36,704 nucleotides of DNA. Source: Sphingobacteriaceae bacterium. GTDB lineage: Bacteria; Bacteroidota; Bacteroidia; B-17B0; Aurantibacillaceae. The translations under genes were made by a program, and so were the position numbers. Shown here piece by piece: positions 2 through 21,601 of this stretch (position 1 is its first letter; the number at the start of each line of letters is the position of its first letter). The stretch covers positions 1-36,704 of the forward strand of contig JAHEYE010000024.1 of the NCBI GenBank assembly GCA_023251695.1, written 5' to 3'. The notes below the pieces were generated by a model. That model was not told where the DNA came from and did no database searches. It saw nothing but the letters and a program-made list of their open reading frames with translations.

Positions 2-3000
2 AAAATTTTTACCGTTTTACTGATGTGTGCTGCAAGCGCTGTTATCGCGATGGGTTTTTTCAGTAATTTTTTTACAAGAGAAGCAGATTTTATTATTAAT
101 AAAGGCGACAGCTATGAAAGGCTTTGGAAACGGGTAGACAGCTGCCAGAATAAAGGCTTAACCGAATCGGCATTAAAAATTGTAGAAGTAATTTATTCTA
201 AATCCAAGGCCGACAATAATGCGGCTCAATTTGTAAAAGCGGTATTACACCGTATGAAGTTTGAGGCTTATAAAGAAGAGTTTTCTTTAGAGAAATCCAT
301 TATCAAATTACGTGATGAGGCTAATGCCGCTAAATATCCCATTAAGCCCGTGCTTCATAGTATTTTGGCTGATGCTTATTGGCAGTATTTCCAAAACAAC
401 CGTTGGAAATTTTATAACCGGAGCACCGTAGTAAATTTCAACAATGATGACATCACCACTTGGGATCTGAAAACCATCACCGATGCAACCATAAAAAATT
501 ATAAGCTTTCTCTGGAAAGGCCCGATAGTTTAAAACGCACCAAAATTGATATTTATGATGCTGTAATTGAAAAAGGAACAACAGAATGCCGGAAATGGCG
601 ACCAACACTTTACGATTTCCTTGCACACCGCGCGCTTGCTTTTTTCATGGGACAAGAACCCGACATTTCACGCCCCGCCAACAGGTTTACAGTTAACGAT
701 GAAATTTATTTAAAAGCTTATCCTGAATTTTTAACTGCAGATATAAAAAATCCATCCGATAGCCTGGAAACAAAATATTATGCTTTGAAATTAATGCAGG
801 ATGTCATCCGTTTTCATCAAAACGACAACAATCCGGATGCCTTAATAGATGTTGAATTATTGCGGCTCGATTATGTTCACAGTCATTCTCAAAACGCTAA
901 AAAAGATACGCTCTATTTTAATTCGTTAAAAGGATTACAGGGAAAGTTTTCTGCGAGTCCGCGTGTAACCGAGATCGATCACCGCATGGCCAATTGGTAT
1001 TTGCAAAAAGCAAATCAATACAATCCATTAGAAGGGGATAATTACAAATGGTACAAAAAAACTGCTAAAGAAATTTGTCAGCAAGCCATTAAAAAGTTTC
1101 CGGAATCTTATGGGGCTAAAGAATGCCAAAACACGATTGCTTCCATTGAAGCAAAAAGCATGAATTTGGTTGTGGAAGAGGTGAATGAACCAAATAAACC
1201 CTTCCGCGCCATGTTGGCCTCTGCTAACATCAATAAATTATATTTTAAGCTTGTTAAAACGACCCATATTGAATTAAGGAAATTATACAGGAATTATTAT
1301 AGCGACAAGCTTTATAATAAACTTAATTCGTTTCCTACCGTTAAAGCCTTTGAACAGGAAATTCCGAATGATGGCGATTACCAAAGTCATAATTTAGAAA
1401 TAAAAATTCCTGAATTACCCGCAGGTTATTACGTTTTAATTTCTTCCTTAAATCCTGATTTTAAATATGAAAGCAACCTGACTTCTTATGCTCAGGTTAT
1501 TTCCTCCGATATCACCACTATTGAAAGAAGGAAAGAAGATGGCTCTTATGATTTCTATACCCTTAACCGCCAAACAGGTGACCCTCTAAAAAACGTGAAC
1601 GTACAGGTTTGGCACGAAAAATATTCTTATGTAACACGCGAATACGAAATTAAAAAGGGAGAATTAAAAAAGTCGGATGAAAAAGGATATTTTAATATCA
1701 GTTATAATAAAGACGAAGACCGTTCTTTCTTTGTAGAAATAATTAACGGTACAGATTCATACTTCAACAATAACAGTTATTATACCTACAAACCTTACAC
1801 TAACGATTATACAACAGTCCGCTCTTTTATTTTCACCGACCGTGCCATTTACCGTCCGGGACAAACAGTTTATTTTAAATCGATTGTTCTCGAGGGGAAA
1901 AATAATGACAACTATAAAATAAAAACCAATTATCCGGTTACTCTTACTTTTTTTGATGTGAATTATCAAAAAGTTTCTTCGTTGGATTTAACCACAAACG
2001 AATACGGAACCGTAAGCGGTTCGTTTGTTGCGCCGCAAGGAGTGCTCAATGGACAAATGAGAATCACCGATAACCACGGACAGGCGTATTTCTCTGTTGA
2101 AGATTACAAACGCCCGAAGTTTGAAACGAATTTCAATCCTGTAAAAGGTTCTTACAAAATAAATGATGAAATAATTGTTACCGGTATCGCAAAAGCTTAC
2201 GCCGGCAATGTAATAGATGGCGCAAAAGTAAATTACCGTGTTATCCGTCAGATCAATTATCCATATTGGTACTGGTGGTATCGTCCGTATTACAGTTCGG
2301 GCGGGGAAGCTGAAATTACAAACGGCGAAACTATTACTAATGACACCGGCGCCTACATTATTAAATTCAAAGCGCTGCCCGATGAAAGCGTTTCAAAAAC
2401 AAGTCAGGCCACTTACCAATACAGAATAATGGCCGACGTAGTTGATATTAATGGCGAAACACACAATACAGAAACTTATGCAACAGTGGGTTATCAGGCT
2501 TTAAAATTAAATGTTAACGGAGATGACATTGTGGATCAAAACAAAATGAATCCTTTTAATATCACAACTTACAATTTAAATGGTGTGGCTGAAGCAACCA
2601 AGGGAACATTTACTGTTTACAAATTAAAACAGCCTGAAAGGGTTTTCAGGAACCGTTTATGGGCCCAACCCGACAGGCATTCGCTAAATAAAGAGGAGTA
2701 TTACAAAACCTTTTCGACAGATTTATATGCCGACGAGCTAAACAAATACAAATGGGAAAAAGAAAATAAAGTTGCAGAGAAGGCTTTTGATACAGGCACA
2801 AAAACAGAATATGATCTAGCAGCAGAATTAAAAAATCTTAAGCCGGGTGTTTATATTATTGAAGCTGTTTGTAAAGATAAATTCGGTGAGGAAGTAAAAG
2901 CCTTCAATTACTTTACATTATTTAATCAGGACAATACAAACATTCCGGAACAAACACCTGATTGGTTCTATTTCCCGAAAACAAAAGCTGAACCGGGCGA

Positions 3001-6000
3001 AAAAGTTTCTTACATATTACACTCTGCTTATCCTAATGCAAATTACATGTTTGAGTTAGAACATCAGGGAAAAGCTCTAACTACAAAAACGCTGAGTTGT
3101 GCCATGCAACCAAATGAAATTGCAGTTGAAGAAGCTTATCGTGGAAATTTTGCCTTTCATACTACATTCATTAAAAATAACCGCTTCTATCATCACAGTA
3201 ATGTTGTTACAGTTCCGTACACCAATAAAGAACTGGATATTGAATTCCAGACTTTCAGAAATAAATTATTACCAGGGCAACAGGAGGAATGGAAATTAAT
3301 TATTAAAGACAAAAAAGGTGATAAAGCTGCTGCTGAATTAATGGCGGGAATGTATGATGCTTCGCTGGATGCATTCGCTGCGAACAGTTGGTATATGAGT
3401 GTTTACAATACTTATTACGCCAGATTAAATTGGACTTCAGGTGTTGGTCACCAAAATAATTCAACCGAGTTCCATAATTTAAGCAACAATTATGTTTCTG
3501 TTCCTTCGCGTTATTACGATTATCTGAATTATTTCGGATTGTATTTTTACAGTAATTACTATTACAAGGGCGGGCGGGAATATGATTCTTATTCGGATGG
3601 TGCCTATCCGGCAACTGAAGCATCGGGTAATTTAAAGTTAGACGAAGTTTCCGTAACTAAATCATCCCCTTCTCCTAAAAAATCAATGCGTGCTGAAGAA
3701 AAGTCGAAGGACAATAAAAACATGGCGGACAAAGAGCAGGCTGAAGTTACAACAGCTTTTACAGGATCGGGGGAGGGTGCAGGTAATGGCCCCGCCGGAG
3801 GTAAAGACGGTCAGAAAGGCAAAGAATTAGGAAGTGTAAAAGCAAGAAGTAATTTTAATGAGACTGCATTTTTCTTCCCGCATTTGGAAACAAACGAAAA
3901 AGGTGAAACCGTAATTAAGTTTACTGTTCCTGAGAGTTTAACCAAATGGAAAGTAATGGGACTCGCGCATACGAAAGATCTGAAGATAGGTCAGTTTACG
4001 AAAGAAGTCGTAACGCAAAAAGAATTGATGGTTATGCCAAACGTACCGCGTTTTTTCCGTGAAGGTGATAAAATGACTTTTATTTCTAAAATTTCAAATT
4101 TATCCGATGCCGATATGAAAGGTTCTGCTGAATTAAAATTATATGATGCTTTAACCGAACAAGAGATTTCGCACAAAATGATTGAGGCCATGCATGGTGA
4201 ATTCCCAACCATTGGTTACCGTGAATTTGCCGTGAAAAAAGGATTAAGCACTACTATCGAATGGAACATTGCTATACCTGAAGGATACGGCGCGATTAAA
4301 TATAAAATTGTAGCTAAGGCAGGAAATTTCAGTGACGGTGAAGAAATGGCGATTCCGGTTTTAACTAACCGTATGTTAGTTACCGAAAGTATGCCCCTAC
4401 CTATCAGAAGCAATCAAACCAAGGAATTTGATTTTGTGAAATTCGGAAATCAAAATAATAATTCAACAACCTTAAAAAATCATTCCTACACTTTAGAGTT
4501 TACTGCAAATCCCGCTTGGTATGCCGTTCAGGCTCTTCCTTATTTAATGGAATATCCATATGAATGCGCTGAGCAAACCTTTGCAAGATATTATGCAAAC
4601 AGTTTGTCTTCTTATGTAGTAAACTCTAAGCCGAAAATTAAGGCTGTGTTTGAAGCCTGGAAAACATCTAGTCCGGATGCGTTTTTATCTAATCTCGAAA
4701 AAAATCAGGAACTAAAAGCTTTAATGTTAGAAGAAACGCCTTGGGTATTACAATCGAAAAACGAAAGCGAAAATAAAAAGCGTGTTGGTTTATTATTCGA
4801 TTTAAACAAAATGGCGAATGAACAAGCCCGTGCATTTAAAAAATTACAAAAAGCGCAAACTTCAAATGGCGGCTTCTGGTGGTTTGAGGGCGGACCTGAT
4901 GATTGGTACATTACGCAACACATTGCCTCCGGTTTTGGTCACCTTGATAAATTAGGGGTGATAAAAGCACGCGAAAATAGTGAGGTTTGGAACATGGTAA
5001 CTAATGCTGTACAATATTGCGACAACCGTATGCACGAAGAATATGAATGGTTGAAAAAACATGCTCCAAAATACAAAACCGAAAACCATTTGAGTTACAT
5101 GGCCGTTCAGTATTTGTACATGCGCAGTTTCTTCAAAGATGTTACTCTTTCTAGCAGAAACAAAGAACACTTTGATTACTATAAAAAGCAAGAGCAAACT
5201 TACTGGCTTCAAAACGGAAGATTTATGCAAGGTATGATTGCTTTAAGTTTACACCGTTATGAAGATAAAGTGATTCCAAAAGATATTTTAAAATCGTTGA
5301 AAGAAAATTCTTTGAACAGTGAAGAAATGGGCATGTACTGGAAAGAAAATTACGGTTACTACTGGTACGAAGCGCCAATAGAAATGCAGGCCTTAATGAT
5401 TGAAGCATTTGATGAAGTGAACAACGACACAAAAGCGGTTGATGATCTGAAAACCTGGCTAATCAAGAGTAAACAAACACAGCATTGGGGAACAACACGT
5501 TCAACCACTGAAGCGGTTTATGCTTTATTACTGAAAGGAACAGATTGGTTAGCAACAGAACCGAATGTTGAAATTACTGTCGGGGATATTGTATTGGATC
5601 CTAAAAATGATAAAAACCTAAACGCAGAACCGGGAACAGGCTACTTTAAAAAAGTCTGGAATGGTTCGGATATCAAAACCTCCATGAGCAAAATTAAAGT
5701 CGCGAAAAAAGATCAGGGGGTAAGCTACGGCGCTGTTTACTGGCAATATTTTGAGCAGTTAGATAAAATTACACCTCACGAAACGCCACTGAAAATTAAG
5801 AAACAATTGTTCTTACAAAAAAACACAGCCGGCGGTCCGGTTATTGAACCAATAACTGCTGCCACCAAATTAAAACTCGGTGATAAAATAAAAGTGAGAA
5901 TTGAATTGCGCGTTGACCGTGATATGAATTATGTGCATATGAAAGACATGCGAGCAGCAGGTTTTGAGCCAACAAATGTTTTTAGTGGTTACAGATGGCA

Positions 6001-6211
6001 GGATGGTTTGGGTTATTATGAAAGCACAAGGGATGCTGCTACTAACTTCTTCTTCTCTTACCTCAATAAAGGAACTTATGTATTCGAGTACCCATTAGTG
6101 GTGAATCATTATGGTGATTTTAGCAATGGAATAACCACAATTCAATGTATGTATGCCCCTGAGTTTACAAGTCATAGCGAGGGTATAAGGGTTAAAGTGG
6201 CTAAAAACTAA
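2..6211 (+). CDS. alpha-2-macroglobulin family protein, thioester-containing (5' end probably just outside the window)
   Basis: Single 6.2-kb ORF. The frame stays open from nt 2 (K-I-F-T-V-L-L before the first ATG at 23) and reads like the middle of a signal peptide, so the true start is likely upstream of the window. Thioester motif C-A-E-Q (YPYECAEQT) lies at 4565-4576. The block RSNFNETAFFFP follows a ~90-aa low-complexity segment. Size and beta-rich MG-like architecture are typical of bacterial A2M. Confidence 0.9.
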   Translation, partial: KIFTVLLMCAASAVIAMGFFSNFFTREADFIINKGDSYERLWKRVDSCQNKGLTESALKIVEVIYSKSKADNNAAQFVKAVLHRMKFEAYKEEFSLEKSIIKLRDEANAAKYPIKPVLHSILADAYWQYFQNNRWKFYNRSTVVNFNNDDITTWDLKTITDATIKNYKLSLERPDSLKRTKIDIYDAVIEKGTTECRKWRPTLYDFLAHRALAFFMGQEPDISRPANRFTVNDEIYLKAYPEFLTADIKNPSDSLETKYYALKLMQDVIRFHQNDNNPDALIDVELLRLDYVHSHSQNAKKDTLYFNSLKGLQGKFSASPRVTEIDHRMANWYLQKANQYNPLEGDNYKWYKKTAKEICQQAIKKFPESYGAKECQNTIASIEAKSMNLVVEEVNEPNKPFRAMLASANINKLYFKLVKTTHIELRKLYRNYYSDKLYNKLNSFPTVKAFEQEIPNDGDYQSHNLEIKIPELPAGYYVLISSLNPDFKYESNLTSYAQVISSDITTIERRKEDGSYDFYTLNRQTGDPLKNVNVQVWHEKYSYVTREYEIKKGELKKSDEKGYFNISYNKDEDRSFFVEIINGTDSYFNNNSYYTYKPYTNDYTTVRSFIFTDRAIYRPGQTVYFKSIVLEGKNNDNYKIKTNYPVTLTFFDVNYQKVSSLDLTTNEYGTVSGSFVAPQGVLNGQMRITDNHGQAYFSVEDYKRPKFETNFNPVKGSYKINDEIIVTGIAKAYAGNVIDGAKVNYRVIRQINYPYWYWWYRPYYSSGGEAEITNGETITNDTGAYIIKFKALPDESVSKTSQATYQYRIMADVVDINGETHNTETYATVGYQALKLNVNGDDIVDQNKMNPFNITTYNLNGVAEATKGTFTVYKLKQPERVFRNRLWAQPDRHSLNKEEYYKTFSTDLYADELNKYKWEKENKVAEKAFDTGTKTEYDLAAELKNLKPGVYIIEAVCKDKFGEEVKAFNYFTLFNQDNTNIPEQTPDWFYFPKTKAEPGEKVSYILHSAYPNANYMFELEHQGKALTTKTLSCAMQPNEIAVEEAYRGNFAFHTTFIKNNRFYHHSNVVTVPYTNKELDIEFQTFRNKLLPGQQEEWKLIIKDKKGDKAAAELMAGMYDASLDAFAANSWYMSVYNTYYARLNWTSGVGHQNNSTEFHNLSNNYVSVPSRYYDYLNYFGLYFYSNYYYKGGREYDSYSDGAYPATEASGNLKLDEVSVTKSSPSPKKSMRAEEKSKDNKNMADKEQAEVTTAFTGSGEGAGNGPAGGKDGQKGKELGSVKARSNFNETAFFFPHLETNEKGETVIKFTVPESLTKWKVMGLAHTKDLKIGQFTKEVVTQKELMVMPNVPRFFREGDKMTFISKISNLSDADMKGSAELKLYDALTEQEISHKMIEAMHGEFPTIGYREFAVKKGLSTTIEWNIAIPEGYGAIKYKIVAKAGNFSDGEEMAIPVLTNRMLVTESMPLPIRSNQTKEFDFVKFGNQNNNSTTLKNHSYTLEFTANPAWYAVQALPYLMEYPYECAEQTFARYYANSLSSYVVNSKPKIKAVFEAWKTSSPDAFLSNLEKNQELKALMLEETPWVLQSKNESENKKRVGLLFDLNKMANEQARAFKKLQKAQTSNGGFWWFEGGPDDWYITQHIASGFGHLDKLGVIKARENSEVWNMVTNAVQYCDNRMHEEYEWLKKHAPKYKTENHLSYMAVQYLYMRSFFKDVTLSSRNKEHFDYYKKQEQTYWLQNGRFMQGMIALSLHRYEDKVIPKDILKSLKENSLNSEEMGMYWKENYGYYWYEAPIEMQALMIEAFDEVNNDTKAVDDLKTWLIKSKQTQHWGTTRSTTEAVYALLLKGTDWLATEPNVEITVGDIVLDPKNDKNLNAEPGTGYFKKVWNGSDIKTSMSKIKVAKKDQGVSYGAVYWQYFEQLDKITPHETPLKIKKQLFLQKNTAGGPVIEPITAATKLKLGDKIKVRIELRVDRDMNYVHMKDMRAAGFEPTNVFSGYRWQDGLGYYESTRDAATNFFFSYLNKGTYVFEYPLVVNHYGDFSNGITTIQCMYAPEFTSHSEGIRVKVAKN

Positions 6212-6296: not shown

Positions 6297-8333
6297 ATGT
6301 TACACCAAATTCATTTAAAACTTATTTTAGTATCCATTACGATGATTTTCTATTCTTGTGGAAGCAGCAACTTTGAAGTGGGAAATTTTGATCCGATAAG
6401 CAACTATCTTAAAAAGGATAATGACACTTTATATAATATTACTACAGACCTGAGCGATGCTGTACTAAGCGGTATCGAAATTCCAACCAAACAACAAACC
6501 GCTTCAGGGTATTTCGTTTTTACTTTTAAAGTCAAGAATAATTCAGCAGACATAAAAAAATATTATTATAAAATCTTCTACGAAAACGTTTCTTACAAGT
6601 TCAATGATACTTCAAAATACGCCCAGGAAAATTTTTACGGTAGTTGGGAAAATGGCTATTATACTTTTAAAGCAACTAAAATTCTTGAGCCCGGGGAAGA
6701 GTCTCTTATTACAGATAGTTTTAAAATTGCCGGAAATCCGCGAAACGAAACAAAATATTTTGGTGCCGATCCCAAAAAATATATTGCCATAGATGATTCC
6801 ATAAACTCGAAAATGGATGTTGTCAGATCAGTTCCCAGTTGGATGAAAACGTGTATAGAAAAAGCAAAAGAGCTTGGAACAACGCTTGATGAGCAAATTT
6901 ATTTAAATGCTGTTTGGGGAATAAATTATGAAAAGCAAAGGCTGAAAGTAAACAACAATAGATGGAAAAGAAACCCGCGAATGGGCATTTATGAATTTAT
7001 GCTCGTTTTAACCTCAACTGAAGATATAGGTAAAATACCAACAGCCATTCACGACATTCAAAAGACGGATTCATTGGGAAAATTTATGAACCCTTTTGGT
7101 TACTTTATTTTTAAAGAAGGCAAAAATCTCCCCAACACATTTGTATTACGCTCTTCAAAAAAAATAAAACTAAGTTCTGAATTGGATCTTGGTTCCGGAA
7201 TTTTCATTGACAAACTTGCAATTAATAAATCACAATTTTCCCTCGATGCTTTAAATGCTACTTGTAATAATTCTCCTTCGCTATATGAAAAAGCACAATT
7301 CGTTCAGTATTTTCATAACATTGATAAAAACTTCACAGTATATAATGTTCCTGAAATTCGGGATGTAACCGGAGAAAATTTTACTAAGTCAGAATATGAG
7401 GGTTTAATGACAAAATATTCTGATAAAAACAAACGCACAAAATTATTTGTGAGTACTTCAGATTGTCCGTGTAAAACAGTAATGTCAAATGCGAAAACCA
7501 AAACACTTAAAATAACCGTTCCGGCAAATGAATCAGGAAAATTAAAAAAAGAGCATGTAGGGCTTTCTTCTAGAATTGGATTTACTTATGGGAAATTCAG
7601 GGCTAAAATTAAATTTCCCGAAATGCTCAGCAAGGATAATGTCTGGAACGGTATTACTAATGCATTTTGGTTATTGTTTCAGGAAGATGCAGAATGGAAT
7701 CTAAGACGTAACTGTGATGCAAAAATAGGGTACATACCGAGGTCAGAACCCGATAATGAAACCGCTCTCGGAAAATCAAAGAGAACACTCGCCTATTCTG
7801 AAATTGATTTTGAAATTGTAAAAGAGTCGCAATACTGGCCAAAGACTTCTTATAAAAACGGGGCCGCGGTTTATAAAACAGATCATGCAGCAAATAATCA
7901 TGACGTAATGGTAACCTGTACTAATTGGGACATGGCTTGTCAGGAACCAAAGCTGTTTAGTTTTGGTGCTAAAGATTTTAAAATTGATAATAACAACTAC
8001 ACCTTACATCGGTGGAATCCTTATTACAGAGCCCTCTCTGCTAAAATTCCAGTAAATCATGACGAGTTGTTTAAAGCGCCTTATTATTATTTTGAAATTG
8101 AGTGGTTACCGGAAAAAATTATTTGGAGAATTGGTCCTGAAAAAGAAAAAATGCATGTTATTTGTGTAATGGATGCTTCCATGTCGGCTATACCAAATAA
8201 CCAAATGATGTTAATGTTTACGCAGGAATGGCATAATGAAGAGTGGTGGCCAACGGCTCCCTATAGACAAAACTTCATTCCTTTTCCAAAAAAAGATTTA
8301 ATAGGAGAAATATTAGAAATTGATATTGAATAA
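6297..8333 (+). CDS. lipoprotein with C-terminal glycoside hydrolase family 16 (ConA-like glucanase) domain; N-terminal ~400 aa unassigned
   Basis: Lipoprotein-type signal (ITMIFYSC21GSS). The C-terminal ~260 aa carry GH16 blocks: GFTYGKFRAKIKFP, NAFWLL, the catalytic motif E-I-D-F-E (7800-7814), YYFEIEWLPEKIIWRIG and MMLMFTQEW. Confidence 0.75.
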   Translation: MLHQIHLKLILVSITMIFYSCGSSNFEVGNFDPISNYLKKDNDTLYNITTDLSDAVLSGIEIPTKQQTASGYFVFTFKVKNNSADIKKYYYKIFYENVSYKFNDTSKYAQENFYGSWENGYYTFKATKILEPGEESLITDSFKIAGNPRNETKYFGADPKKYIAIDDSINSKMDVVRSVPSWMKTCIEKAKELGTTLDEQIYLNAVWGINYEKQRLKVNNNRWKRNPRMGIYEFMLVLTSTEDIGKIPTAIHDIQKTDSLGKFMNPFGYFIFKEGKNLPNTFVLRSSKKIKLSSELDLGSGIFIDKLAINKSQFSLDALNATCNNSPSLYEKAQFVQYFHNIDKNFTVYNVPEIRDVTGENFTKSEYEGLMTKYSDKNKRTKLFVSTSDCPCKTVMSNAKTKTLKITVPANESGKLKKEHVGLSSRIGFTYGKFRAKIKFPEMLSKDNVWNGITNAFWLLFQEDAEWNLRRNCDAKIGYIPRSEPDNETALGKSKRTLAYSEIDFEIVKESQYWPKTSYKNGAAVYKTDHAANNHDVMVTCTNWDMACQEPKLFSFGAKDFKIDNNNYTLHRWNPYYRALSAKIPVNHDELFKAPYYYFEIEWLPEKIIWRIGPEKEKMHVICVMDASMSAIPNNQMMLMFTQEWHNEEWWPTAPYRQNFIPFPKKDLIGEILEIDIE

Positions 8334-8335
8334 CT

Positions 8336-9763
8336 ATGATTTTTAGCAGTGTTATATTTTTGGTTTATTTTTTACCGGTTTTTTTAGCCTTGTATTTTCT
8401 TACACCAACAAGATTTAAAAATGTTGTTTTATTGCTTTCCAGTATTTTCTTTTATGCATGGGGGGCGCCTCTGTTTATTTTTGCAATACTGGCAACAACA
8501 ACAGTAGATTTTTATTTTGTAAAGTTACTGTCAGGGGCGCAAAACGAAAAGAAGAAAAAAGCGTTTTTGGTCCTTTCGCTTTGCTTAAACGTTGGTATGC
8601 TCTTTTATTTTAAGTACTGCAATTTTTTTATTGAGAATTTCAATACCCTCCTTGGAAATTTCGGTGTAAAAGAAGTTGGCTGGACTAAGGTCATATTGCC
8701 AATCGGCATTTCATTTTATACATTCGAAAGTATAACTTACGTGGTTGATGTATACAGAAGAGTTCACAAACCGCTAAACAATTTTTTCCAATACCAACTA
8801 TACATTATTTTATTTCCAAAATTAATTGCGGGACCGATTATCCGGTATCACGATATAGCCGATCAAATTACCGACCGAAGTAATAACGACAACATTGACA
8901 ATAAACTAACAGGATTCCATAGGTTTTGTATTGGGCTCGCTAAAAAAGTAATGATTGCAAACGTTATGGCTTTAAAAGCTGATGAAATTTTCGGATTGCC
9001 TTCAGAATCTTTAAGTACATCGATGGCATGGATAGGGATGTTAGCTTATACTTTTCAGATATATTTTGATTTCTCAGGATATTCCGATATGGCCATTGGT
9101 ATTGGAAAAATGCTAGGTTTTAAATTTCCTGAAAACTTTGATAATCCATATACCTCAAAAAGTATAACTGAATTTTGGAGACGATGGCATATGACACTGG
9201 GAAGTTGGATGAAAAACTATTTATACATTCCATTAGGAGGAAACAAAGTAAATTCAAAAACAAAATTGTATTTTAATTTATGGCTTGTATTCCTTCTGTC
9301 TGGGTTTTGGCATGGAGCGGCTTGGACCTTTATTATCTGGGGGATTTATCACGGAATGTGGCTGGTACTTGAGCGGGTTTTTCTTAGTAAAGTATATGAA
9401 AAAATCGGTGGTTTTGTTTCTACTGTAACTTGTTTTTTACTTGTAGCCATAGGATGGGTTTTTTTCAGGGCAGAAAAAACAACTGATGCTTTATTATTCG
9501 TAAAAAAACTTTTTTTATTCGACTTTCAACTGCCCCCTCGTTTTTTGGACAATGAGTTTTTATTTTTTGGGGCTCTTGCTTTAATTTTCTCTTTTTTTAC
9601 CAGTTTTAAAGTTGGACGTTCAATCCAAAATAAAGTCTATTTTTCATATTACGGAATAAGTGGTACCCTCATAGCAACTCTTCTGGCATGTATATTATTT
9701 ACCCTGTCATTAGCTTCAATTACTTCCTCTGGTTTTAATCCGTTTATTTATTTTAGGTTTTAA
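8336..9763 (+). CDS. MBOAT family O-acyltransferase (AlgI/PatA/DltB-like)
   Basis: Multi-pass membrane protein. MBOAT blocks WRRWHMTLGSWMKNYLYIPLGGN and FLLSGFWHGAAW are present (conserved His326 at 9311-9313). It starts 2 nt after the GH16 stop. Confidence 0.9.
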   Translation: MIFSSVIFLVYFLPVFLALYFLTPTRFKNVVLLLSSIFFYAWGAPLFIFAILATTTVDFYFVKLLSGAQNEKKKKAFLVLSLCLNVGMLFYFKYCNFFIENFNTLLGNFGVKEVGWTKVILPIGISFYTFESITYVVDVYRRVHKPLNNFFQYQLYIILFPKLIAGPIIRYHDIADQITDRSNNDNIDNKLTGFHRFCIGLAKKVMIANVMALKADEIFGLPSESLSTSMAWIGMLAYTFQIYFDFSGYSDMAIGIGKMLGFKFPENFDNPYTSKSITEFWRRWHMTLGSWMKNYLYIPLGGNKVNSKTKLYFNLWLVFLLSGFWHGAAWTFIIWGIYHGMWLVLERVFLSKVYEKIGGFVSTVTCFLLVAIGWVFFRAEKTTDALLFVKKLFLFDFQLPPRFLDNEFLFFGALALIFSFFTSFKVGRSIQNKVYFSYYGISGTLIATLLACILFTLSLASITSSGFNPFIYFRF

Positions 9764-11241
9764 TGTTTCAATCTAAATTAATATATCACCGGTTTTTCTT
9801 TGTGGGCATCCTTGTTTTTTTATTCGTTCCTCTTTTGCAAAACACTTTTTATTTTAAGTGGATTCAACCACTTAAAGGTGCTTATCAACACATAGATGAT
9901 ATAGGTCTGACAAAAGATAATTGGCTTGAGGGAGCTTACCAGTTACGTAAAGAAGAATATCTCGATAATACTTTTGGCTTCAGAAATTACTATGTTCGGC
10001 TTAATAACCAAATCAATCTTTCCTTATTCAGAAAGTCAAACGTAAAAAAAGTAGTAGTTGGAAAAGGCGGTTTTTTATATGAAGATGATTACATAAATGC
10101 GTATTATGGTAACAACTTCGTTGGTAAAGAAAAGCTTGGGGAGCGTTTTAATAAATTAAAAATTGTTCAGAATTTACTTCTTGATCAGGGTATTTTACTC
10201 GAAGTTGTATTTGCCCCCGGAAAAGCTTCCTTTTATCCTGAATTCATTCCAGATAACTGGAGGTCAGAAAAAAAACTGAGCAACTACCAATATTGCCGGA
10301 AATTGTGTGATGAAATGGGTATTGATTACATAGACTTCAACGCGTGGTTTCTTAAAGAAAAAGGCATTTCCCCTTACGACCTTTATCCTAAAACTGGAAT
10401 TCATTGGAGCAACTATGGAGCCTTGCTTGCAATTGATTCTTTAAAATCACACATCGAAAAAAGAACTAAAATGAAGCTTCGGGAATTTGTTATAGATAAT
10501 GTAAGTTTTTCCGATTCATTACTTAGTCCGGATAATGATATTGGCGAATCCATGAATCTTGTTTATGATATTCCGGTTTTACCAATGCCTTATGCGAATT
10601 ATCATTGGATTGAGAACGAAAATGCGATGAAACCAAGTGCATTATTTATTGGTGACAGTTATTTTTGGAATATTTATTATCAGGGGTTCACAAATAATTT
10701 TTTTACAGATTGTAAATTTTGGTATTATAATAAAACTATTTATCCTGAAAGTGTACCTGAACGTGAAGTAAAAAAACTTGATCTAAGAAAAGAACTTTCC
10801 GGCTACAAGGTTGTAGTTTTAATGGCTACCGAAAGTAACATTCATGATATCGGATGGGGATTTATTGAGAATGTTTATGAAATATTTAAACAAGAAATCA
10901 AATCTGCATTCCGTAAAAGTGTCTATTTGAAAGACCTTGTACGCGAAATACATTCTTCTCCCGGATACATGTCTGAAATCAAGAAAAAAGCTACAGCTAA
11001 CAATATTCCATTTGAAACACAGATTCAAATGGATGCTGAATATATTTACCGCCGGGATTTTTCATCAGCTGAAATCGTCACTCTTACAGAGAAGAATAAA
11101 GAAAGAATCAGGAACACCCCTGAATGGATGGGCCAGATAAAAAAGAAAGCCAAAGAAAAGAACATGACGGAAGATGAGATGATAGAGCTGGACGCTAAAT
11201 ACATTTATGTAACGGAACAAAGAGATAAATTACAAAACTAA
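9763..11241 (+). CDS. membrane-anchored AlgJ/AlgX-type (SGNH-like) putative O-acetyltransferase/esterase, paralog 1
   Basis: N-terminal single TM segment (FFFVGILVFLFVPLL). Blocks resemble the AlgJ/AlgX family: VVGKGGFLYE, VFAPGKASFYPEFIP, YPKTGIHWSNYGA and FIGDSYFW. The ATG overlaps the MBOAT stop (TAATG at 9761-9765). Family call is from remembered motifs, not a search. Confidence 0.6.
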   Translation: MFQSKLIYHRFFFVGILVFLFVPLLQNTFYFKWIQPLKGAYQHIDDIGLTKDNWLEGAYQLRKEEYLDNTFGFRNYYVRLNNQINLSLFRKSNVKKVVVGKGGFLYEDDYINAYYGNNFVGKEKLGERFNKLKIVQNLLLDQGILLEVVFAPGKASFYPEFIPDNWRSEKKLSNYQYCRKLCDEMGIDYIDFNAWFLKEKGISPYDLYPKTGIHWSNYGALLAIDSLKSHIEKRTKMKLREFVIDNVSFSDSLLSPDNDIGESMNLVYDIPVLPMPYANYHWIENENAMKPSALFIGDSYFWNIYYQGFTNNFFTDCKFWYYNKTIYPESVPEREVKKLDLRKELSGYKVVVLMATESNIHDIGWGFIENVYEIFKQEIKSAFRKSVYLKDLVREIHSSPGYMSEIKKKATANNIPFETQIQMDAEYIYRRDFSSAEIVTLTEKNKERIRNTPEWMGQIKKKAKEKNMTEDEMIELDAKYIYVTEQRDKLQN

Positions 11242-11266
11242 GACTGAAAAAAATTAAAATGTTATT

Positions 11267-12727
11267 TTGCTGATGCTTTTTTTAAAGAATCATATTAAAC
11301 ACATGTTATTACTCGGATTACTTATCCCGTTTTTGCTTATTTATTTTCAGCAAATAAAACCATTTACAGGACTTAAACCTTTAAAAGGTTATTTTATTCC
11401 TAAATCTTATTCCACTTTTAACGTTGATTCGTGGTTTAGCGGAACATATCAATCAACTACCGATGAGTATATTAAAGAAGAATTTGGGTTCAGAAACGCT
11501 TTTGTTCGTTTGCACAATCAACTGAGCTTTTGGTTTTTTGGAAAAGCAAATTTAGATGAAATTATTATTGGCAAAGAAAACTATCTTTTTGAAGAACCTT
11601 ATATTGATGCTTTAAAAAGAAAAGAGCCTCCGGATTTTAAAGGATTGAATGATACGCTTCAGTTAATAAAACGATTACAAGATACTTTAAAGCTGTTGGG
11701 AAAAGAAATGATTATTGTTTTAGCCCCAAGCAAAGCACGAATATACTCGGAATATATTCCTGATGATTATAAACCGCTAAATGAAGAGAATTCATATTAC
11801 AATTTTTATTGCAAGGCGCTTAGTAATTACCGTATACAGTACATTGATTTTAATTCTCTTTTTTTAAAAAAGAAAAGTACATCTAAATATTTGTTGTTTC
11901 CGAAATTGGGAATACACTGGAGCAGGCTTGAAGCAGTTTTCGCCGCAGATAGTATGTTCAAATATCTGGCATGGAAGTCAAATTGTAATTTACCAAAATT
12001 AGAAATAAGTGATATAAAAGAGATTGATACATTGCAGATGCCAGATAATGATATTATTGAAAGCATGAATCTTTTATTCTTTCCAGATTTTGATAAAATG
12101 GCGTATCCGTTAAAAATTAAGATTGATTCTGAAAATAAGTCTAAGCGAAATTTGATGGTGATATCCGATAGTTATTGGTGGGATATTTATTCCAGAGGTA
12201 TACCAAAAGACATTTTTGAGAACAATGAATTCTTGTATTATAATAATCAGTTGTTCGGTAATAATTATATGGGAGACACTGACCCAAAAAAAATTGACAT
12301 TAAGAGGCATATATTAAATGCTGATCATATTATTTTATTATTCACCGAACCTAATTTAGATAGATTGGGGTTTGGCTTTATTGGAAGCGCTTTAAGCGCA
12401 ATGAAAAGGAATATCCAACCAACTAATGCCGAATTAAAAGATATTATTGATGCTATAAAAAACAATAAAGAGTGGTGTCAAAACATAGCCGAAAAGTCAA
12501 TCATTAATAATATAAGTGCTGACTCAATGATGACAATTGACGCAATGTGGTATTTTCAGCGGGAGGGTCCCTTAAAAAAAGAATTATTTATTAATGATGT
12601 GAAATCTTTGATTAAATCCAATCCAGTATGGATTAAAAATGTCCATGCGAAAGCCAAACAAAGAGGATTAAGCATTGATTCCATGATGACTTTAGACGCT
12701 ATTTGGTATATCCAACAACAAAAATAA
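11267..12727 (+). CDS. membrane-anchored AlgJ/AlgX-type (SGNH-like) protein, paralog 2
   Basis: Collinear block-by-block similarity to the previous ORF: EFGFRNAFVRLHNQ, IIGKENYLFE, VLAPSKARIYSEYIP, FPKLGIHWS, MPDNDIIESMNL and VISDSYWW. The start is TTG 11267 or in-frame ATG 11273. Confidence 0.6.
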   Translation: MLMLFLKNHIKHMLLLGLLIPFLLIYFQQIKPFTGLKPLKGYFIPKSYSTFNVDSWFSGTYQSTTDEYIKEEFGFRNAFVRLHNQLSFWFFGKANLDEIIIGKENYLFEEPYIDALKRKEPPDFKGLNDTLQLIKRLQDTLKLLGKEMIIVLAPSKARIYSEYIPDDYKPLNEENSYYNFYCKALSNYRIQYIDFNSLFLKKKSTSKYLLFPKLGIHWSRLEAVFAADSMFKYLAWKSNCNLPKLEISDIKEIDTLQMPDNDIIESMNLLFFPDFDKMAYPLKIKIDSENKSKRNLMVISDSYWWDIYSRGIPKDIFENNEFLYYNNQLFGNNYMGDTDPKKIDIKRHILNADHIILLFTEPNLDRLGFGFIGSALSAMKRNIQPTNAELKDIIDAIKNNKEWCQNIAEKSIINNISADSMMTIDAMWYFQREGPLKKELFINDVKSLIKSNPVWIKNVHAKAKQRGLSIDSMMTLDAIWYIQQQK

Positions 12728-16503: not shown

Positions 16504-17244
16504 ATGACCAACTTAAATAAAGAGAAAATACCTCAGCATATCGCTATTATTATGGATGGTAACGGACGCTGGGCTAAGCAACAAGGTGAAGATCGTATTT
16601 TTGGCCATCACGAAGGTGTTAACTCAGTGAGGGAAATTGTTGAAGCTGCCGGTGAAGTTGGAGTCAAATATTTAACGCTCTACGCTTTCAGTACTGAAAA
16701 CTGGAACCGTCCGAAAGAAGAAGTGGATGCTTTGATGGAATTACTGGTGGCTACAATTACAATGGAAACTCCCCAATTGCACAAGAATGGCGTTAAACTG
16801 GAAGCAATAGGAGATTTGAAAAGTTTACCGGTAAGTTGCTTTAACGAATTACAGGAATCCATCAATACAACAAAAAACAATAAAGGCCTCACGTTAATCC
16901 TTGCCTTAAGCTATTCTTCGAAGTGGGAAATCATTAACAGTGTTAAAGAAATTGCAGTGAAAGTTGCCGAAGGGAAATTAAAACCAAACGATATTACGGA
17001 AGAAACCATTGCTTCACATTTATGTACTACAAAATATCCCGATCCTGAATTGATGATCCGCACCAGCGGTGAGCATCGCATCAGTAATTTTTTACTTTGG
17101 CAATTGGCTTATGCCGAATTTTATTTCACTGATACGCTTTGGCCGGATTTCAGGAAAAAGGAATTTTACGAAGCTATTCATGCCTACCAATCGCGCGAAA
17201 GACGCTTTGGAAAAACAAGCGAACAGATAAGCCATTCAGAATGA
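16504..17244 (+). CDS. uppS: isoprenyl transferase (undecaprenyl diphosphate synthase)
   Basis: HIAIIMDGNGRWA, YLTLYAFSTENWNRP, IRTSGEHRISNFLLWQLAYAEFYF and ERRFG motifs. Confidence 0.95.
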   Translation: MTNLNKEKIPQHIAIIMDGNGRWAKQQGEDRIFGHHEGVNSVREIVEAAGEVGVKYLTLYAFSTENWNRPKEEVDALMELLVATITMETPQLHKNGVKLEAIGDLKSLPVSCFNELQESINTTKNNKGLTLILALSYSSKWEIINSVKEIAVKVAEGKLKPNDITEETIASHLCTTKYPDPELMIRTSGEHRISNFLLWQLAYAEFYFTDTLWPDFRKKEFYEAIHAYQSRERRFGKTSEQISHSE

Positions 17245-19790
17245 ATATAAAGTTTAGCTACATATTTTTATTTTGTCTGCTTTCGGCATCGGCTATGTTT
17301 TCACAAAAAGACACCGCATCATCACTAAATTACGCCGCACCTAAGGAATTTACAATTGGTGGCATTGAAGTAAGCGGTGCTAATTTTACAGATAAAAATG
17401 TAATCAAACTTTTATCCGGACTCGTTGCCGGCGACAAAATAAAAATTCCAGGTGATAAAACTTCTGATGCTATTAAAGCCCTGTGGAAACAAGGTTTGTT
17501 TGAGAATATTATTATTTATCAGGATAAAATAATAGGAAATGATGTTTTCCTAAGAATTGACATAACGGAGCGACCACGTTTATCGAAATTTTCCTTCAGG
17601 GGAAAGGTCCGCAAGAATGAAGCCGATGAGATAAGGGCGAAAATAAGATTGGTGCGTGAAAAAGTAGTAACCGATTACGCTTTGGGTTTTGTTCAAAACA
17701 CAGTGCGTGATTATTTTGTGAATAAAGGTTTTTACAACGCAAAAGTTAGCATTACACAAGAGGCCGACCGTACCACAAAAACACCGCACACTATTTTATA
17801 CATCAACGTAAGCCGCGGCAAAAAAGTGAGGATAAAAAATCTAAGCTTCCATGGCAATGAGCAGCTCGCCAGCTGGAAATTACGCCGCAAAATGGAAGAC
17901 AGTAAACCGTTCCGTTTTTACAATCCATTTAATTCAGGAAAATATTTAGAAGATAATCTCGACAAAGATTTACCGGCCGTTATTGCAAAATATAACAGTA
18001 AAGGTTATCGCGACGCACGTGTCATTCGGGATACCGTAACTTTTGTAAACCGTAAACGCGTGAACATTGATGTGTTTTTAGAAGAAGGTCACAAATTTTA
18101 TTTTGGTAAGTTTAAATGGTTCGGAAATACAAAATACAGAAGCGGTCAGCTAGATACAATTTTGAATATAAAATCGGGTGAAATTTTCGACCAAAGTCAT
18201 CTCGATCAAAAATTATTTAATAACCCGAATGGATTTGATATTTCCTCGCTTTATATGGATGATGGCTATTTATTTTATCAGGTAAATCCGCAAGAAGCAA
18301 ACATTCATAACGATACAATTGATTTCGATATTCACATGTATGAAGGCAAACAGGCCATCATTAATAAAGTTACTGTGAAGGGTAACGACAAAACCAACGA
18401 CCATGTAATCTATAGGGAAATCAGAACAAGGCCCGGACAATTATTCCGTCGTTCAGACATTATGCGAACCATCCGAGAATTATCGCAGTTGGGTTATTTT
18501 GATCCTGAAAAAATGGTCCCGGTGCCTATACCGAACCCCGCTGAAGGAACCGTTGATATTGAATATAGTGTAGAAGAAAAACCAAACGACCAGATTACGC
18601 TTTCGGGTGGCTGGGGCGGCGGTCGCTTAATTGGTACCCTTGGTGTTACGTTCAATAATTTCTCGATGCGAAATTTCTTTAAAAAAGAATACTGGAAACC
18701 GCTTCCCACAGGAGATGGTCAGCGTTTCAGTGTGCAGGCGCAAACGAATGGTTTGTATTATCAGTCGTATAATATTTCGTTTACTGAGCCTTGGCTTGGT
18801 GGTAAAAAACCAAACTCACTAACGGTTTCCGCCTTTCACTCAACCTTCTCTAACGGCGTAAAAAATAAAGTTAAAATTGATGGCGAAAAAGTATTGAATC
18901 CTCTAAGAAGTACGATGAACATCTGGGGCGGATCTTTAGGATTTGGCAAACGTTTAAAGTGGCCGGATGATTATTTTCAAATGTACACCAGCTTAAGCTA
19001 TAATTATTACGATCTATATAAATATCCATATTTTATTTTATCAACTGGCTATGCCAACGATGTTAATTTGGGTGTAAATATTTCCCGCAATTCGGTTGAT
19101 GCGCCTATCTATCCAAAAAACGGTTCTAATTTTGTTTTTCATGGTCAGTGGACGCCGCCTTATTCATCGTTTAACGGAAAAGATTATGCAATTTCCAACG
19201 CGCAGCAACGTTATAAATTTATCGAATATCACAAATATAAATTTACAGCCGAGTGGTTTACACAATTAACCAACAAACGCGCAGCCGAAGGAAAGGAAGC
19301 AAGAAACCTTGTGCTAAGAACCAAAGTTGGTTTTGGTTTCTTAACCTATTACAATAAAGATGTGGGCATCTCTCCGTTCGAACGCTTTTATTTGGGAGGT
19401 AGTGGATTAAGCGGTTATCAAAACTTCGTTGCCCGCGAAATTATCGGACTACGTGGTTATACTGACAATTCCTTATCCTCTGCATTAGGCGACCCAATTT
19501 GTTCGCGTTACACAATGGAATTAAGGTTCCCTGTAACATTGAACCCACAGGCAACTATATTTGTTTTAGGCTTTGCAGAGGCTGGAAATTCATGGTCCAA
19601 TTACAAACAATACAATCCGTTTCAGGTAAAGCGTAGCGCAGGATTTGGTCTGCGTGTGTTTTTACCAATGTTCGGATTATTGGGTGTTGACTATGGATGG
19701 GGATTTGATAATGTGCCGGGAAACTCGGGAATTGGAAACGGAAAAGGGCAATTCCATTTCACTATTGGCGGACAGCTTGGTGAGATGTAA
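17241..19790 (+). CDS. bamA: outer membrane protein assembly factor BamA
   Basis: Signal peptide MNIKFSYIFLFCLLSASAMFSQ from ATG 17241 (ATGA overlap with the uppS stop). POTRA-like repeats are followed by a C-terminal Omp85 barrel (RFYLGG..., GFGLRVFLPMFGLLGVDYGWGFD). The upstream 34 codons of the longest ORF overlap uppS and are rejected. Confidence 0.9.
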   Translation: MNIKFSYIFLFCLLSASAMFSQKDTASSLNYAAPKEFTIGGIEVSGANFTDKNVIKLLSGLVAGDKIKIPGDKTSDAIKALWKQGLFENIIIYQDKIIGNDVFLRIDITERPRLSKFSFRGKVRKNEADEIRAKIRLVREKVVTDYALGFVQNTVRDYFVNKGFYNAKVSITQEADRTTKTPHTILYINVSRGKKVRIKNLSFHGNEQLASWKLRRKMEDSKPFRFYNPFNSGKYLEDNLDKDLPAVIAKYNSKGYRDARVIRDTVTFVNRKRVNIDVFLEEGHKFYFGKFKWFGNTKYRSGQLDTILNIKSGEIFDQSHLDQKLFNNPNGFDISSLYMDDGYLFYQVNPQEANIHNDTIDFDIHMYEGKQAIINKVTVKGNDKTNDHVIYREIRTRPGQLFRRSDIMRTIRELSQLGYFDPEKMVPVPIPNPAEGTVDIEYSVEEKPNDQITLSGGWGGGRLIGTLGVTFNNFSMRNFFKKEYWKPLPTGDGQRFSVQAQTNGLYYQSYNISFTEPWLGGKKPNSLTVSAFHSTFSNGVKNKVKIDGEKVLNPLRSTMNIWGGSLGFGKRLKWPDDYFQMYTSLSYNYYDLYKYPYFILSTGYANDVNLGVNISRNSVDAPIYPKNGSNFVFHGQWTPPYSSFNGKDYAISNAQQRYKFIEYHKYKFTAEWFTQLTNKRAAEGKEARNLVLRTKVGFGFLTYYNKDVGISPFERFYLGGSGLSGYQNFVAREIIGLRGYTDNSLSSALGDPICSRYTMELRFPVTLNPQATIFVLGFAEAGNSWSNYKQYNPFQVKRSAGFGLRVFLPMFGLLGVDYGWGFDNVPGNSGIGNGKGQFHFTIGGQLGEM

Positions 19791-19867
19791 TGTAAAAAAT
19801 GTTAATTTGAAGGAATTCCGTATCTTGGCACAGCTTATGATTGCTTAATAATTAAAAACAATAAAAG

Positions 19868-20386
19868 ATGAAAAAGATTATTTCGGTTTTAGCGATTGTA
19901 GCATTAAGTAGTTTTGCTCTTAAGGCTCAAAAAATCGGTTATGTTGATACCGATTATATCCTCACTAGTATTCCTGAATATAAGGCAGCACAGGGGGAAA
20001 TTGATAAATTATCGGTGGATTGGCAAAAGGAAGTTGAGGCCAAATACACTGAGATTGATAAACTCTATAAAGCTTATCAGGCCGATGCTATTTTATTGAC
20101 CGATGATATGAAGAAAAAACGCGAGAACGAAATTATCAATAAAGAAAAGGAAGTAAAAGAATTACAAAAACAACGTTTTGGGGTTGACGGGGAATTATTC
20201 AAGAAGCGTCAGGAAATGGTAAAACCACTTCAGGATAAAATCTATAACGCGGTTAAAGCTGTTGCTGAACGCGGTGGTTTAGCTATCATTTTAGATAAAG
20301 CGGGACAAGTATCGATTCTTTACGCTAATACAAAATACGATAAGAGTGAAGATGTACTGACCTATATGGGATATAATAAAAAATAA
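19868..20386 (+). CDS. OmpH/Skp family periplasmic chaperone (copy 1)
   Basis: Signal peptide, then QKIGYVDTDYIL and a long K/E-rich coiled region. The position immediately after bamA is canonical. Confidence 0.8.
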   Translation: MKKIISVLAIVALSSFALKAQKIGYVDTDYILTSIPEYKAAQGEIDKLSVDWQKEVEAKYTEIDKLYKAYQADAILLTDDMKKKRENEIINKEKEVKELQKQRFGVDGELFKKRQEMVKPLQDKIYNAVKAVAERGGLAIILDKAGQVSILYANTKYDKSEDVLTYMGYNKK

Positions 20387-20403
20387 AACAGCAATTAACA
20401 GAT

Positions 20404-20982
20404 ATGAAAACAACAATGAAAAAGGCGGCCCTTGTATTTTTTGCGGTTGCGGCCTTTATGGCGAATGCTCAAAAAGTAGCGCATCTGCATTTGGATTCTT
20501 TGTCCAACCTGATGCCTGAAACTAAAACAGCAAAGGGCGTTGCTGAGGCTTATTTCAATGATTTGAAAAAAACAGTTTCTTCAATGGAAGAAGAGTTTCA
20601 GAAAAAATATAACGACTACCTGCAAAATGAAGCCACGATGAACGATTTGGTAAAAAAAACAAAGCAGGATGAATTGCAGTCGCTACAAACCCGCATTCAG
20701 GATTTTAATCAGCAAGCTCAGGCGGATTATCAGAAAAAATCGGCTGAGTTAACCGCTCCAATTATGGAGAAAGCCAAAAAAGCCATAGAAGCTGTTGCAA
20801 AAGAAAATGGTTATAAATATGTTTTGGACACTAGTGCAGGAAACGTTTTGTATTCGGAAGCAAGTGAAGATATTCTGTTAACGGTAAAAAAGAAATTGGA
20901 TTCAATGCCACTGGCGAATATTCCCGGAGCAAATCCTGAAAAACCAAAAACTAATCCCGGCCCCGCAAAAGGAGGCAAATAA
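20404..20982 (+). CDS. OmpH/Skp family periplasmic chaperone (copy 2)
   Basis: Signal peptide, coiled-coil body, GYKYVLDTS block and a Pro/Lys-rich tail ending GGK. Confidence 0.8.
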   Translation: MKTTMKKAALVFFAVAAFMANAQKVAHLHLDSLSNLMPETKTAKGVAEAYFNDLKKTVSSMEEEFQKKYNDYLQNEATMNDLVKKTKQDELQSLQTRIQDFNQQAQADYQKKSAELTAPIMEKAKKAIEAVAKENGYKYVLDTSAGNVLYSEASEDILLTVKKKLDSMPLANIPGANPEKPKTNPGPAKGGK

Positions 20983-21004
20983 TAATTTTATAAAAAATTA
21001 AAAA

Positions 21005-21601
21005 ATGAATAAGACATTAATAAAAATAGTATCGGTTGCCTTGTTTACATTAGGAAGTTTTTCTTTTGCAAGTGCACAAAAAATGGCTCATATAGAACTA
21101 GATTCGTTAGTAAGCATGATGCCCGAAACCAAAACTGCTAAAGATGTGGCACAAGCCTATTGGAAAGATTTGGAAAAAACGGTTATCAGTATGGATAATG
21201 AATTTCAAACCAAATACAACGATTACCTGAGTGCTCAGGCAACCATGAGCGAATTGATAAAAAAAACAAAAGAAGATGAATTGCAGTCATTGCAAAGACG
21301 TATTGAAGATTTTAAACAGCAGGCTCAAATGGATTACCAAAAAAAATCGGCTGAACTTACGGCTCCTATCATGGAGAAAGCCAAAAAGGGTATTGAAGCA
21401 GTATCTAAAGAAGGCGGATACAAGTATGTTCTTGACACCAGTACGGGTAATATTCTTTATTCCGATCCTGCAGATGATATTTTGATGGCAGTGAAAAAGA
21501 AACTTGACTCGATGCCTTTAGCTACGATTCCGGGTGCCGGTGCAACCGAAAAGCCAAAAACAAATACACCAAAGACAACACCAAAAACCGGCGGTAAATA
21601 A
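21005..21601 (+). CDS. OmpH/Skp family periplasmic chaperone (copy 3, recent paralog of copy 2)
   Basis: About 70% aa identity to copy 2 by eye, including the identical run DYQKKSAELTAPIMEKAKK. Confidence 0.8.
   Translation: MNKTLIKIVSVALFTLGSFSFASAQKMAHIELDSLVSMMPETKTAKDVAQAYWKDLEKTVISMDNEFQTKYNDYLSAQATMSELIKKTKEDELQSLQRRIEDFKQQAQMDYQKKSAELTAPIMEKAKKGIEAVSKEGGYKYVLDTSTGNILYSDPADDILMAVKKKLDSMPLATIPGAGATEKPKTNTPKTTPKTGGK

Follow-up and report, generated by a model that had tools for sequence, protein, structure and literature searches.

MBOAT-SGNH acyl relays of the PatA/PatB and AlgI/AlgJ type are known systems that the operon analysed here resembles. AlgJ and AlgX have been the subject of an earlier study (PMC4148444), and for PatA a hexapeptide at the C-terminus has been shown to act as an acyl-Tyr shuttle, which in NgPatA from N. 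gonorrhoeae reads FIYANF (PMC12148441). Here we describe a repeated module found in a putative operon of this type in a Sphingobacteriaceae bacterium (contig JAHEYE010000024.1; the whole stretch of 36,704 nucleotides that was analysed is called the window). Two adjacent genes of this operon encode AlgJ/AlgX-like proteins, AlgJ1 and AlgJ2, and each protein ends in two copies of the module. Literature searches and the MBOAT-SGNH paper PMC12148441 gave no description of such a tail. We consider it highly probable that the repeat is a real and discrete appended module, unnamed and portable, which works outside the cytoplasm.

The repeated unit and its predicted fold

The original prediction had pointed to four alignable segments of 34 residues, R1a and R1b at the end of AlgJ1 and R2a and R2b at the end of AlgJ2, and translation of the stretch at these four sets of coordinates gives exactly the segments that it listed. 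They were recovered by a profile to which only other organisms contributed units and from which those of the window were excluded, when it was run against the six-frame translation of the window: R1a scored 54.3 bits (independent E-value, i-E, 2e-16), R1b 73.3 bits (i-E 3e-22), R2a 47.0 bits (i-E 4e-14) and R2b 53.0 bits (i-E 6e-16). The segments are therefore real, with 47–73 bits against a maximum of 12.2 bits over 400 residue shuffles per unit. Moreover, the two AlgJ1 units by themselves gave a profile that recovered both AlgJ2 units (i-E 1e-4 to 4e-4). The number of copies is five and not four as had been thought, the additional one being inside the open reading frame (ORF) 6297–8333 for a GH16-like lipoprotein (aa ~170–213, 22.1–22.6 bits, i-E ~2e-6 to 2.6e-6); beyond these five, the six-frame scan with the non-window profile gave no further scoring segment in the 36.7-kb window. 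A recent DNA duplication as the origin of the copies is ruled out by their protein identity of only 15–29%.

The length of the unit also had to be revised. A hidden Markov model (HMM) of the four extended units gives about 52 aa, with a period of 52–53 aa and the units abutting in tandem, which bears out the earlier suspicion that the true unit might be about 50 aa; the 34-aa motif covers only helix 2, the loop and helix 3. The linkers of 18–19 aa exist as gaps of 19 and 18 aa, but since the units abut directly over ~52 residues, such a 'linker' is in fact the first part of the next unit, its helix 1. The five copies are as follows.

10909..11064, + strand: module copy 1 of AlgJ-like paralog 1 (aa 383–434), R1a plus the preceding helix; three helices predicted by AlphaFold2 (AF2)
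11068..11223, + strand: module copy 2 of AlgJ-like paralog 1 (aa 436–487), R1b plus the preceding helix; three helices predicted by AF2
12416..12571, + strand: module copy 1 of AlgJ-like paralog 2, R2a plus the preceding helix; 47.0 bits
12572..12724, + strand: module copy 2 of AlgJ-like paralog 2, R2b plus the preceding helix; 53.0 bits
6783..6938, + strand: fifth, internal copy in the GH16-like lipoprotein; core match at nt 6801–6932

An alignment of 105 units at <70% identity shows the signature I14, (T)P18-x-W20, I/V24, K27-A28, N32-I-S, (D/E)36-E-M38, L41-D42-A43, Y/W45 and Y47. Conservation reaches 90% or more at each of I14, W20, K27, A28, D42 and A43 (98% for the Ile at position 14, in helix 1) and about 89% at M38 and Y45. 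Charged residues make up 36% of the units, and the net charge is about zero. For the two-unit tail, AF2 with a 54-sequence alignment produced a confident model (mean pLDDT 95.5, pTM 0.85) of six helices, three per unit, with about 16–19, 13–14 and 16–22 residues, in line with the first impression of a helical-looking repeat. The pTM of 0.85 implies that copies 1 and 2 of AlgJ1 pack as a single compact six-helix domain, and the repeat is predicted to be an autonomously folding three-helix module of ~52 residues. A low-complexity or lineage-specific extension is ruled out by the specific residues kept across four orders together with the pLDDT of 95.

This predicted packing bears on one alternative for the role of the module, namely protein-protein assembly, in which units would pair within a chain if there are two and between chains if there is one or an odd number, so that the enzymes oligomerise or co-assemble. 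In the window, the GH16-like lipoprotein would thus be joined to the two AlgJ-like proteins, and the stand-alone two-unit lipoproteins found in other genomes would be adaptors. The compact two-unit domain favours this reading. Because consecutive units pack as a single domain, a lone unit, as found in the GH16-like protein and in 39 of 120 AlgJ homologues, may have an unsatisfied packing surface. Nevertheless we regard assembly, the chief rival of the reading favoured below, as unlikely, for reasons that come from the distribution of the module.

Two observations concern variation among the units. Position 45 has two flavours, D-A-x-Y in the AlgJ1 units and (D/N)-A-x-W in the AlgJ2 and GH16-like units, and at this position the GH16-like copy is closer to the AlgJ2 copies than to those of AlgJ1. 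In addition, both AlgJ2 units have D-S-M at the start of helix 3 (12521–12529 and 12677–12685), which fits the general O-glycosylation sequon of Bacteroidota, D-(S/T)-(A/I/L/V/M/T). Some module copies may thus be glycosylated themselves. A conserved O-glycosylation site as a defining feature was dropped, because the sequon is present at one fixed module position in only 24 of the 105 units.

No described family was found that accounts for the module. Neither Pfam-A nor NCBIfam has a model that matches the tails, and when the 105 units were scanned singly at E<=10 against both, only noise was found, with a maximum of four units per family; the earlier statement that the motif is not LysM, SPOR, TPR, Sel1 or a peptidoglycan-binding (PG-binding) domain therefore holds. 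The unit profile has no relative among PDB sequences, where only a chance match with an E-value of 0.27 was seen. Foldseek found nothing at E<=1e-3 with a single-sequence model, nor with the confident model against PDB and BFVD, where the best TM was ~0.3–0.4, a method that is weak on small helical domains. For that reason, and because PDB and BFVD were the sets searched, 'no detectable neighbour' is the apt wording and not 'new fold'.

Distribution and host proteins

When 1.84 billion representative proteins were searched exhaustively by HMMER with the 105-unit profile, 1,466 protein clusters matched at E<=1e-3; of these, 500 reached E<=1e-10 and 22 reached E<=1e-30, and a protein had up to five copies. 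The hosts were tallied for the 149 listed representatives from the best 150 of the 1,466 matches. AlgJ-like proteins form the largest group (61 of 149), followed by small proteins without a detected lipobox, or fragments (37), and by small stand-alone lipoproteins with a signal peptide, a lipobox Cys and usually two copies (19). The other carriers are multi-pass membrane proteins without a Pfam match (13), a Wzy_C group with four confirmed Wzy_C plus TPR proteins (6), PMT_2 proteins of the GT-C type (2), orthologues of the GH16-like lipoprotein of the window with two internal copies (P0237 and P0263; 2), and others (9). One unnamed multi-pass partner matches the NCBIfam family 'cell surface glycopolymer formation protein'. 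The module had been proposed to be specific to the system in the window, which it is not, given its presence on stand-alone lipoproteins and on five or more other protein types. All carriers with a source name are from Bacteroidota (Bacteroidales, Cytophagales, Sphingobacteriales/Sphingobacteriaceae and Flavobacteriales), and they are annotated as 'hypothetical' or by the name of the partner domain. Moreover, GT2 genes stand beside three carriers, which would agree with the common arrangement in which a polyprenyl-phosphate-sugar synthase accompanies a GT-C transferase.

The module is placed after the periplasmic SGNH domain of N-terminally anchored proteins and within lipoproteins, and in multi-pass hosts it sits after the last transmembrane segment predicted by a crude hydropathy count. 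On account of these three placements, its site of action is very probably extracytoplasmic, either in the periplasm or on the surface of the cell. Many of the stand-alone two-module lipoproteins (P0144, P0137, P0149, P0169, P0176 and P0186) have an acidic or Ser/Asn-rich stretch after the lipobox Cys, such as C-DDVQDKEEDE or C-SDNENIEN. This stretch resembles the surface-export signal of Bacteroidota lipoproteins, and some of these proteins may be surface-exposed and not periplasmic.

The nature of the hosts also raises the possibility that the module binds the membrane or a lipid carrier, such as polyprenyl-phosphate-linked intermediates, or is a structural spacer, in either case without specific glycan recognition. 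The Wzy_C and GT-C hosts are of families that use polyprenyl-phosphate-linked substrates, most hosts are membrane-bound, and the module is rich in charged residues. Against this, AlgJ-like and GH16-like hosts use no lipid-linked donors, the model predicts a compact, globular bundle of helices and not an amphipathic surface helix, and the charges balance; furthermore, a terminal position is incompatible with a spacer, and the conservation of residues across four orders exceeds what a spacer needs. We therefore consider this explanation improbable.

Among the AlgJ1 homologues the tail is nearly constant and its copy number is not. At least one copy is present in 118 of 120 homologues, with two copies in 78, one in 39, three in one and none in two (P0071 and P0075), and the protein length rises with copy number. 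The idea that homologues generally lack the tail thus fails. In seven related loci from metagenome-assembled genomes (MAGs) of Bacteroidota, the gene order is kept as alpha-2-macroglobulin (A2M), GH16-like, MBOAT, AlgJ1, optional AlgJ2 and Dxs. The GH16-like gene there carries one copy and AlgJ1 two, while AlgJ2 is absent or has zero, two or three copies, zero being the second AlgJ gene of locus L007. The GH16-like copy is kept in all six MAG loci with the whole gene (that of L005 is cut by the contig end).

These results allow assembly to be weighed further. In its favour, three adjacent genes of the operon bear the module, also in those related MAG loci where these genes are complete, and the Wzy_C hosts also have TPR repeats, which are mediators of protein interaction; faint echoes of ribbon-helix-helix (RHH) proteins, obligate dimers of paired helical hairpins, point the same way although they are not significant. 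On the other side, close orthologues differ freely in copy number, from 0 to 5, as a specific docking interface would not usually do, and the RHH similarity lies under every significance threshold. In addition, there is a single module-bearing gene at each of the ten other loci examined, so co-assembly of neighbours is not general.

The operon and the possible role of the module

The genes of the operon in the window are given below.

6297..8333, + strand: GH16-like host, a predicted lipoprotein of 678 aa with signal peptide ...IFYSC and a weak GH16-like C-terminal region
8336..9763, + strand: MBOAT protein (AlgI/PatA/DltB-like), without module; Pfam MBOAT 1e-31; C-terminal end FIYFRF
9763..11241, + strand: AlgJ/AlgX-like SGNH protein 1, 492 aa, with N-terminal membrane anchor, catalytic domain and two modules; Pfam ALGX 2.5e-13
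11267..12727, + strand: AlgJ/AlgX-like SGNH protein 2, 486 aa, with N-terminal membrane anchor, catalytic domain and two modules; Pfam ALGX 1.7e-13

The ALGX model (PF16822) scores 50.7 and 51.3 bits on the two paralogs against a cut-off of 26.5, with the match at about aa 97–236. Both paralogs keep the GIHW and DS motifs, which are at least 95% conserved in 117 homologues, and full-length AlgJ1 has no relative among PDB sequences at E<=0.01. The MBOAT protein ends in ...NPFIYFRF (9743–9763), and FIYFRF fits the F-x-Y-x-x-F acyl-Tyr hexapeptide of PatA-type MBOATs; its gene is followed directly by those of the SGNH proteins. From these sequence features the two hosts are probably SGNH acyltransferases of the AlgX/AlgJ type and the operon a putative MBOAT-SGNH acyl relay; given the hexapeptide together with the intact GIHW and DS motifs, one would expect acyl groups to be relayed to a periplasmic polymer. 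The identity of the lipoprotein is less clear-cut: Pfam Glyco_hydro_16 matches it at E 6e-4, under the gathering score and over aa 402–464 only, and it has no relative among PDB sequences. Most of its 678 residues, including aa ~25–165 ahead of the module, match no family.

Several features of the neighbourhood may be mentioned. Directly upstream (23–6211) lies a gene for a bacterial alpha-2-macroglobulin of 2,062 aa with MG2, A2M and bMG10 domains, and the A2M gene adjoins the GH16-like/MBOAT/AlgJ genes in the five related MAG loci with a flank long enough (L001–L004 and L006), a conserved linkage of a protease-trap protein with a glycan-acylation operon. Downstream (16504–21601) there is a housekeeping envelope cluster with UppS (undecaprenyl diphosphate synthase) and then a BamA-like POTRA protein, followed by three tandem OmpH/Skp paralogs (19868–20386, 20404–20982 and 21005–21601), where the usual number is one.

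A further possibility is that the tail docks on the MBOAT protein or regulates catalysis, in that it would touch the periplasmic face of the MBOAT protein or the SGNH active site and so couple acyl transfer. Both SGNH partners of the MBOAT protein in one operon bear the tail, and almost all AlgJ1 homologues keep it. As a general role, docking to the periplasmic loops of MBOAT, which had been put forward earlier, is argued against by the spread of the module over unrelated hosts: it is also present on Wzy_C, PMT_2 and other multi-pass proteins and on GH16-like and stand-alone lipoproteins, with no MBOAT neighbour at any of the ten loci examined of other host types. Moreover, some orthologues are tail-less (P0071, P0075 and the second AlgJ gene of L007), and the published contacts between PatA and PatB are made by the SGNH domain and the C-terminal hexapeptide of MBOAT, with no such tail (PMC12148441). 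We thus hold this explanation to be very improbable.

The reading that we favour, tentatively and at somewhat less than even chances, is that the module is a non-catalytic binding module recognising an envelope glycopolymer. It is our best guess because variable copy number, terminal tandem arrays and stand-alone forms typify polymer binders that work by avidity, and we infer the binding role, and only weakly the ligand. The module, in one to five tandem copies, is carried by enzymes that build or modify envelope glycans at the outer face of the inner membrane, that is, MBOAT-coupled AlgJ-like acyltransferases, Wzy_C ligase/polymerase-like proteins, GT-C glycosyltransferases and the GH16-like lipoprotein, and it stands alone in the two-copy lipoproteins. 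According to this proposal, the polymer bound may be the shared acceptor of the enzymes or a scaffold such as the cell wall, and the copy number would tune avidity, as with SLH, LysM, SPOR or carbohydrate-binding modules (CBMs). In the operon, the MBOAT protein would hand an acyl group on to both SGNH proteins by way of the Tyr motif at its C-terminus, and the AlgJ tails and the single GH16-like copy would keep the three enzymes attached to one common polymer. The glycan context is supported by the GT2 neighbours, the three module-bearing genes of the operon and the intact relay motifs.

Several points weigh against glycopolymer binding. The module shows no likeness in sequence or structure to known carbohydrate- or wall-binding modules in Pfam, NCBIfam, PDB or Foldseek searches. 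The most conserved residues (W20, I24, K27-A28, M38, L41-D42-A43 and Y45) lie on those faces of the helices where a structural core and a K-D salt bridge could form, and they need not be the binding site. Integral membrane hosts need no anchoring module, and the net charge of about zero gives no pointer to an anionic polymer or lipid. Furthermore, the stand-alone lipoproteins are mostly in heterogeneous housekeeping neighbourhoods and not in glycan loci, and the host inspection covers the best 150 of the 1,466 matches only.

A bolder proposal is possible, though we think it rather doubtful, namely that the module is a new fold and an 'address tag' used across Bacteroidota, one that stands for the periplasm or for the outer side of the inner membrane. 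By recognising a phylum-specific envelope glycoconjugate, or by pairing between proteins, it would bring glycan enzymes that are otherwise unrelated (acyltransferases, GT-C transferases, Wzy_C ligases and a hydrolase) together with adaptor lipoproteins at shared assembly sites. The envelope glycans of Bacteroidota, such as capsules, lipopolysaccharide or lipooligosaccharide, O-glycoproteins and wall modifications, influence how the gut is colonised, how sensitive the cells are to phages and how the immune system recognises them, and to our knowledge it is poorly understood how their periplasmic-side glycan enzymes find their substrates. The identification of one ligand or partner would give insight into many enzymes together. 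The module is also a candidate for a new domain-family entry, with better annotation for more than 1,000 'hypothetical' protein clusters. As long as no ligand has been found, the practical impact stays moderate, and the system is not of a new type.

Comparison with known domain families

Several known families were considered and rejected. TPR and Sel1 are ruled out by the period of 52–53 aa with three helices, against a two-helix unit of 34–36 aa, and by the lack of a match at E<=10; genuine TPRs were detected in the Wzy_C hosts, upstream of the modules. The module does not belong to LysM, SPOR, PG_binding_1 or SLH, for which no match was found in Pfam, among PDB sequences or with Foldseek at E<=1e-3. 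The sorting domain of the type IX secretion system (Por_Secre_tail) is a single C-terminal beta-sandwich of ~80 aa on Sec-exported cargo. It gave no match on the tails and is ruled out, since the module is helical, in tandem, internal in the GH16-like protein and present on inner-membrane proteins.

The only recurring echo is that of ribbon-helix-helix/CopG proteins, which is not significant (Pfam E 0.003–0.15, the best match with E 0.0033 being in 2 of 105 units; Foldseek E>1 and TM ~0.3). The helix 2-loop-helix 3 part of the module resembles the paired helices of RHH (Arc/CopG) proteins, and two units pack like an RHH dimer, whereas a helix takes the place of the N-terminal beta-strand of RHH proteins. 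A DNA-binding RHH is ruled out by the sub-threshold similarity, by helix 1 in place of the strand and by the exported or membrane hosts, as an exported module does not bind DNA.

In general organisation the module is similar to SLH domains, which are also small (~55 aa), mostly helical and present as one or a few tandem copies at the ends of exported enzymes and surface proteins, and neighbouring SLH copies pack into one unit that binds a cell-wall glycopolymer. The main differences are that there is no Pfam or Foldseek match to SLH, that SLH occurs mainly in Firmicutes, Cyanobacteria and similar groups while the module is found in Bacteroidota, and that its hosts are mostly inner-membrane enzymes. 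Like PG_binding_1, LysM and SPOR, it is small and non-catalytic, with variable copy number, on periplasmic envelope enzymes, and it shares a three-helix unit with PG_binding_1; it differs from them in having no sequence or fold match and in its signature, I..PxW..I..KA...NIS.(D/E)EM..LDA.Y.Y. The CBM of AlgX in alginate acetylation of Pseudomonas is likewise non-catalytic and comes after an SGNH domain of the AlgX/AlgJ type, in a system where polymer acetylation depends on an MBOAT, and it is the functional analogy behind the glycopolymer-binding reading. It is a single beta-sandwich, whereas the module is all-helical, in tandem and shared with unrelated enzymes. The domain family that the module represents is thus undescribed, and in general kind it is a familiar one, that of accessory modules carried by envelope enzymes; it has been found so far in Bacteroidota only.

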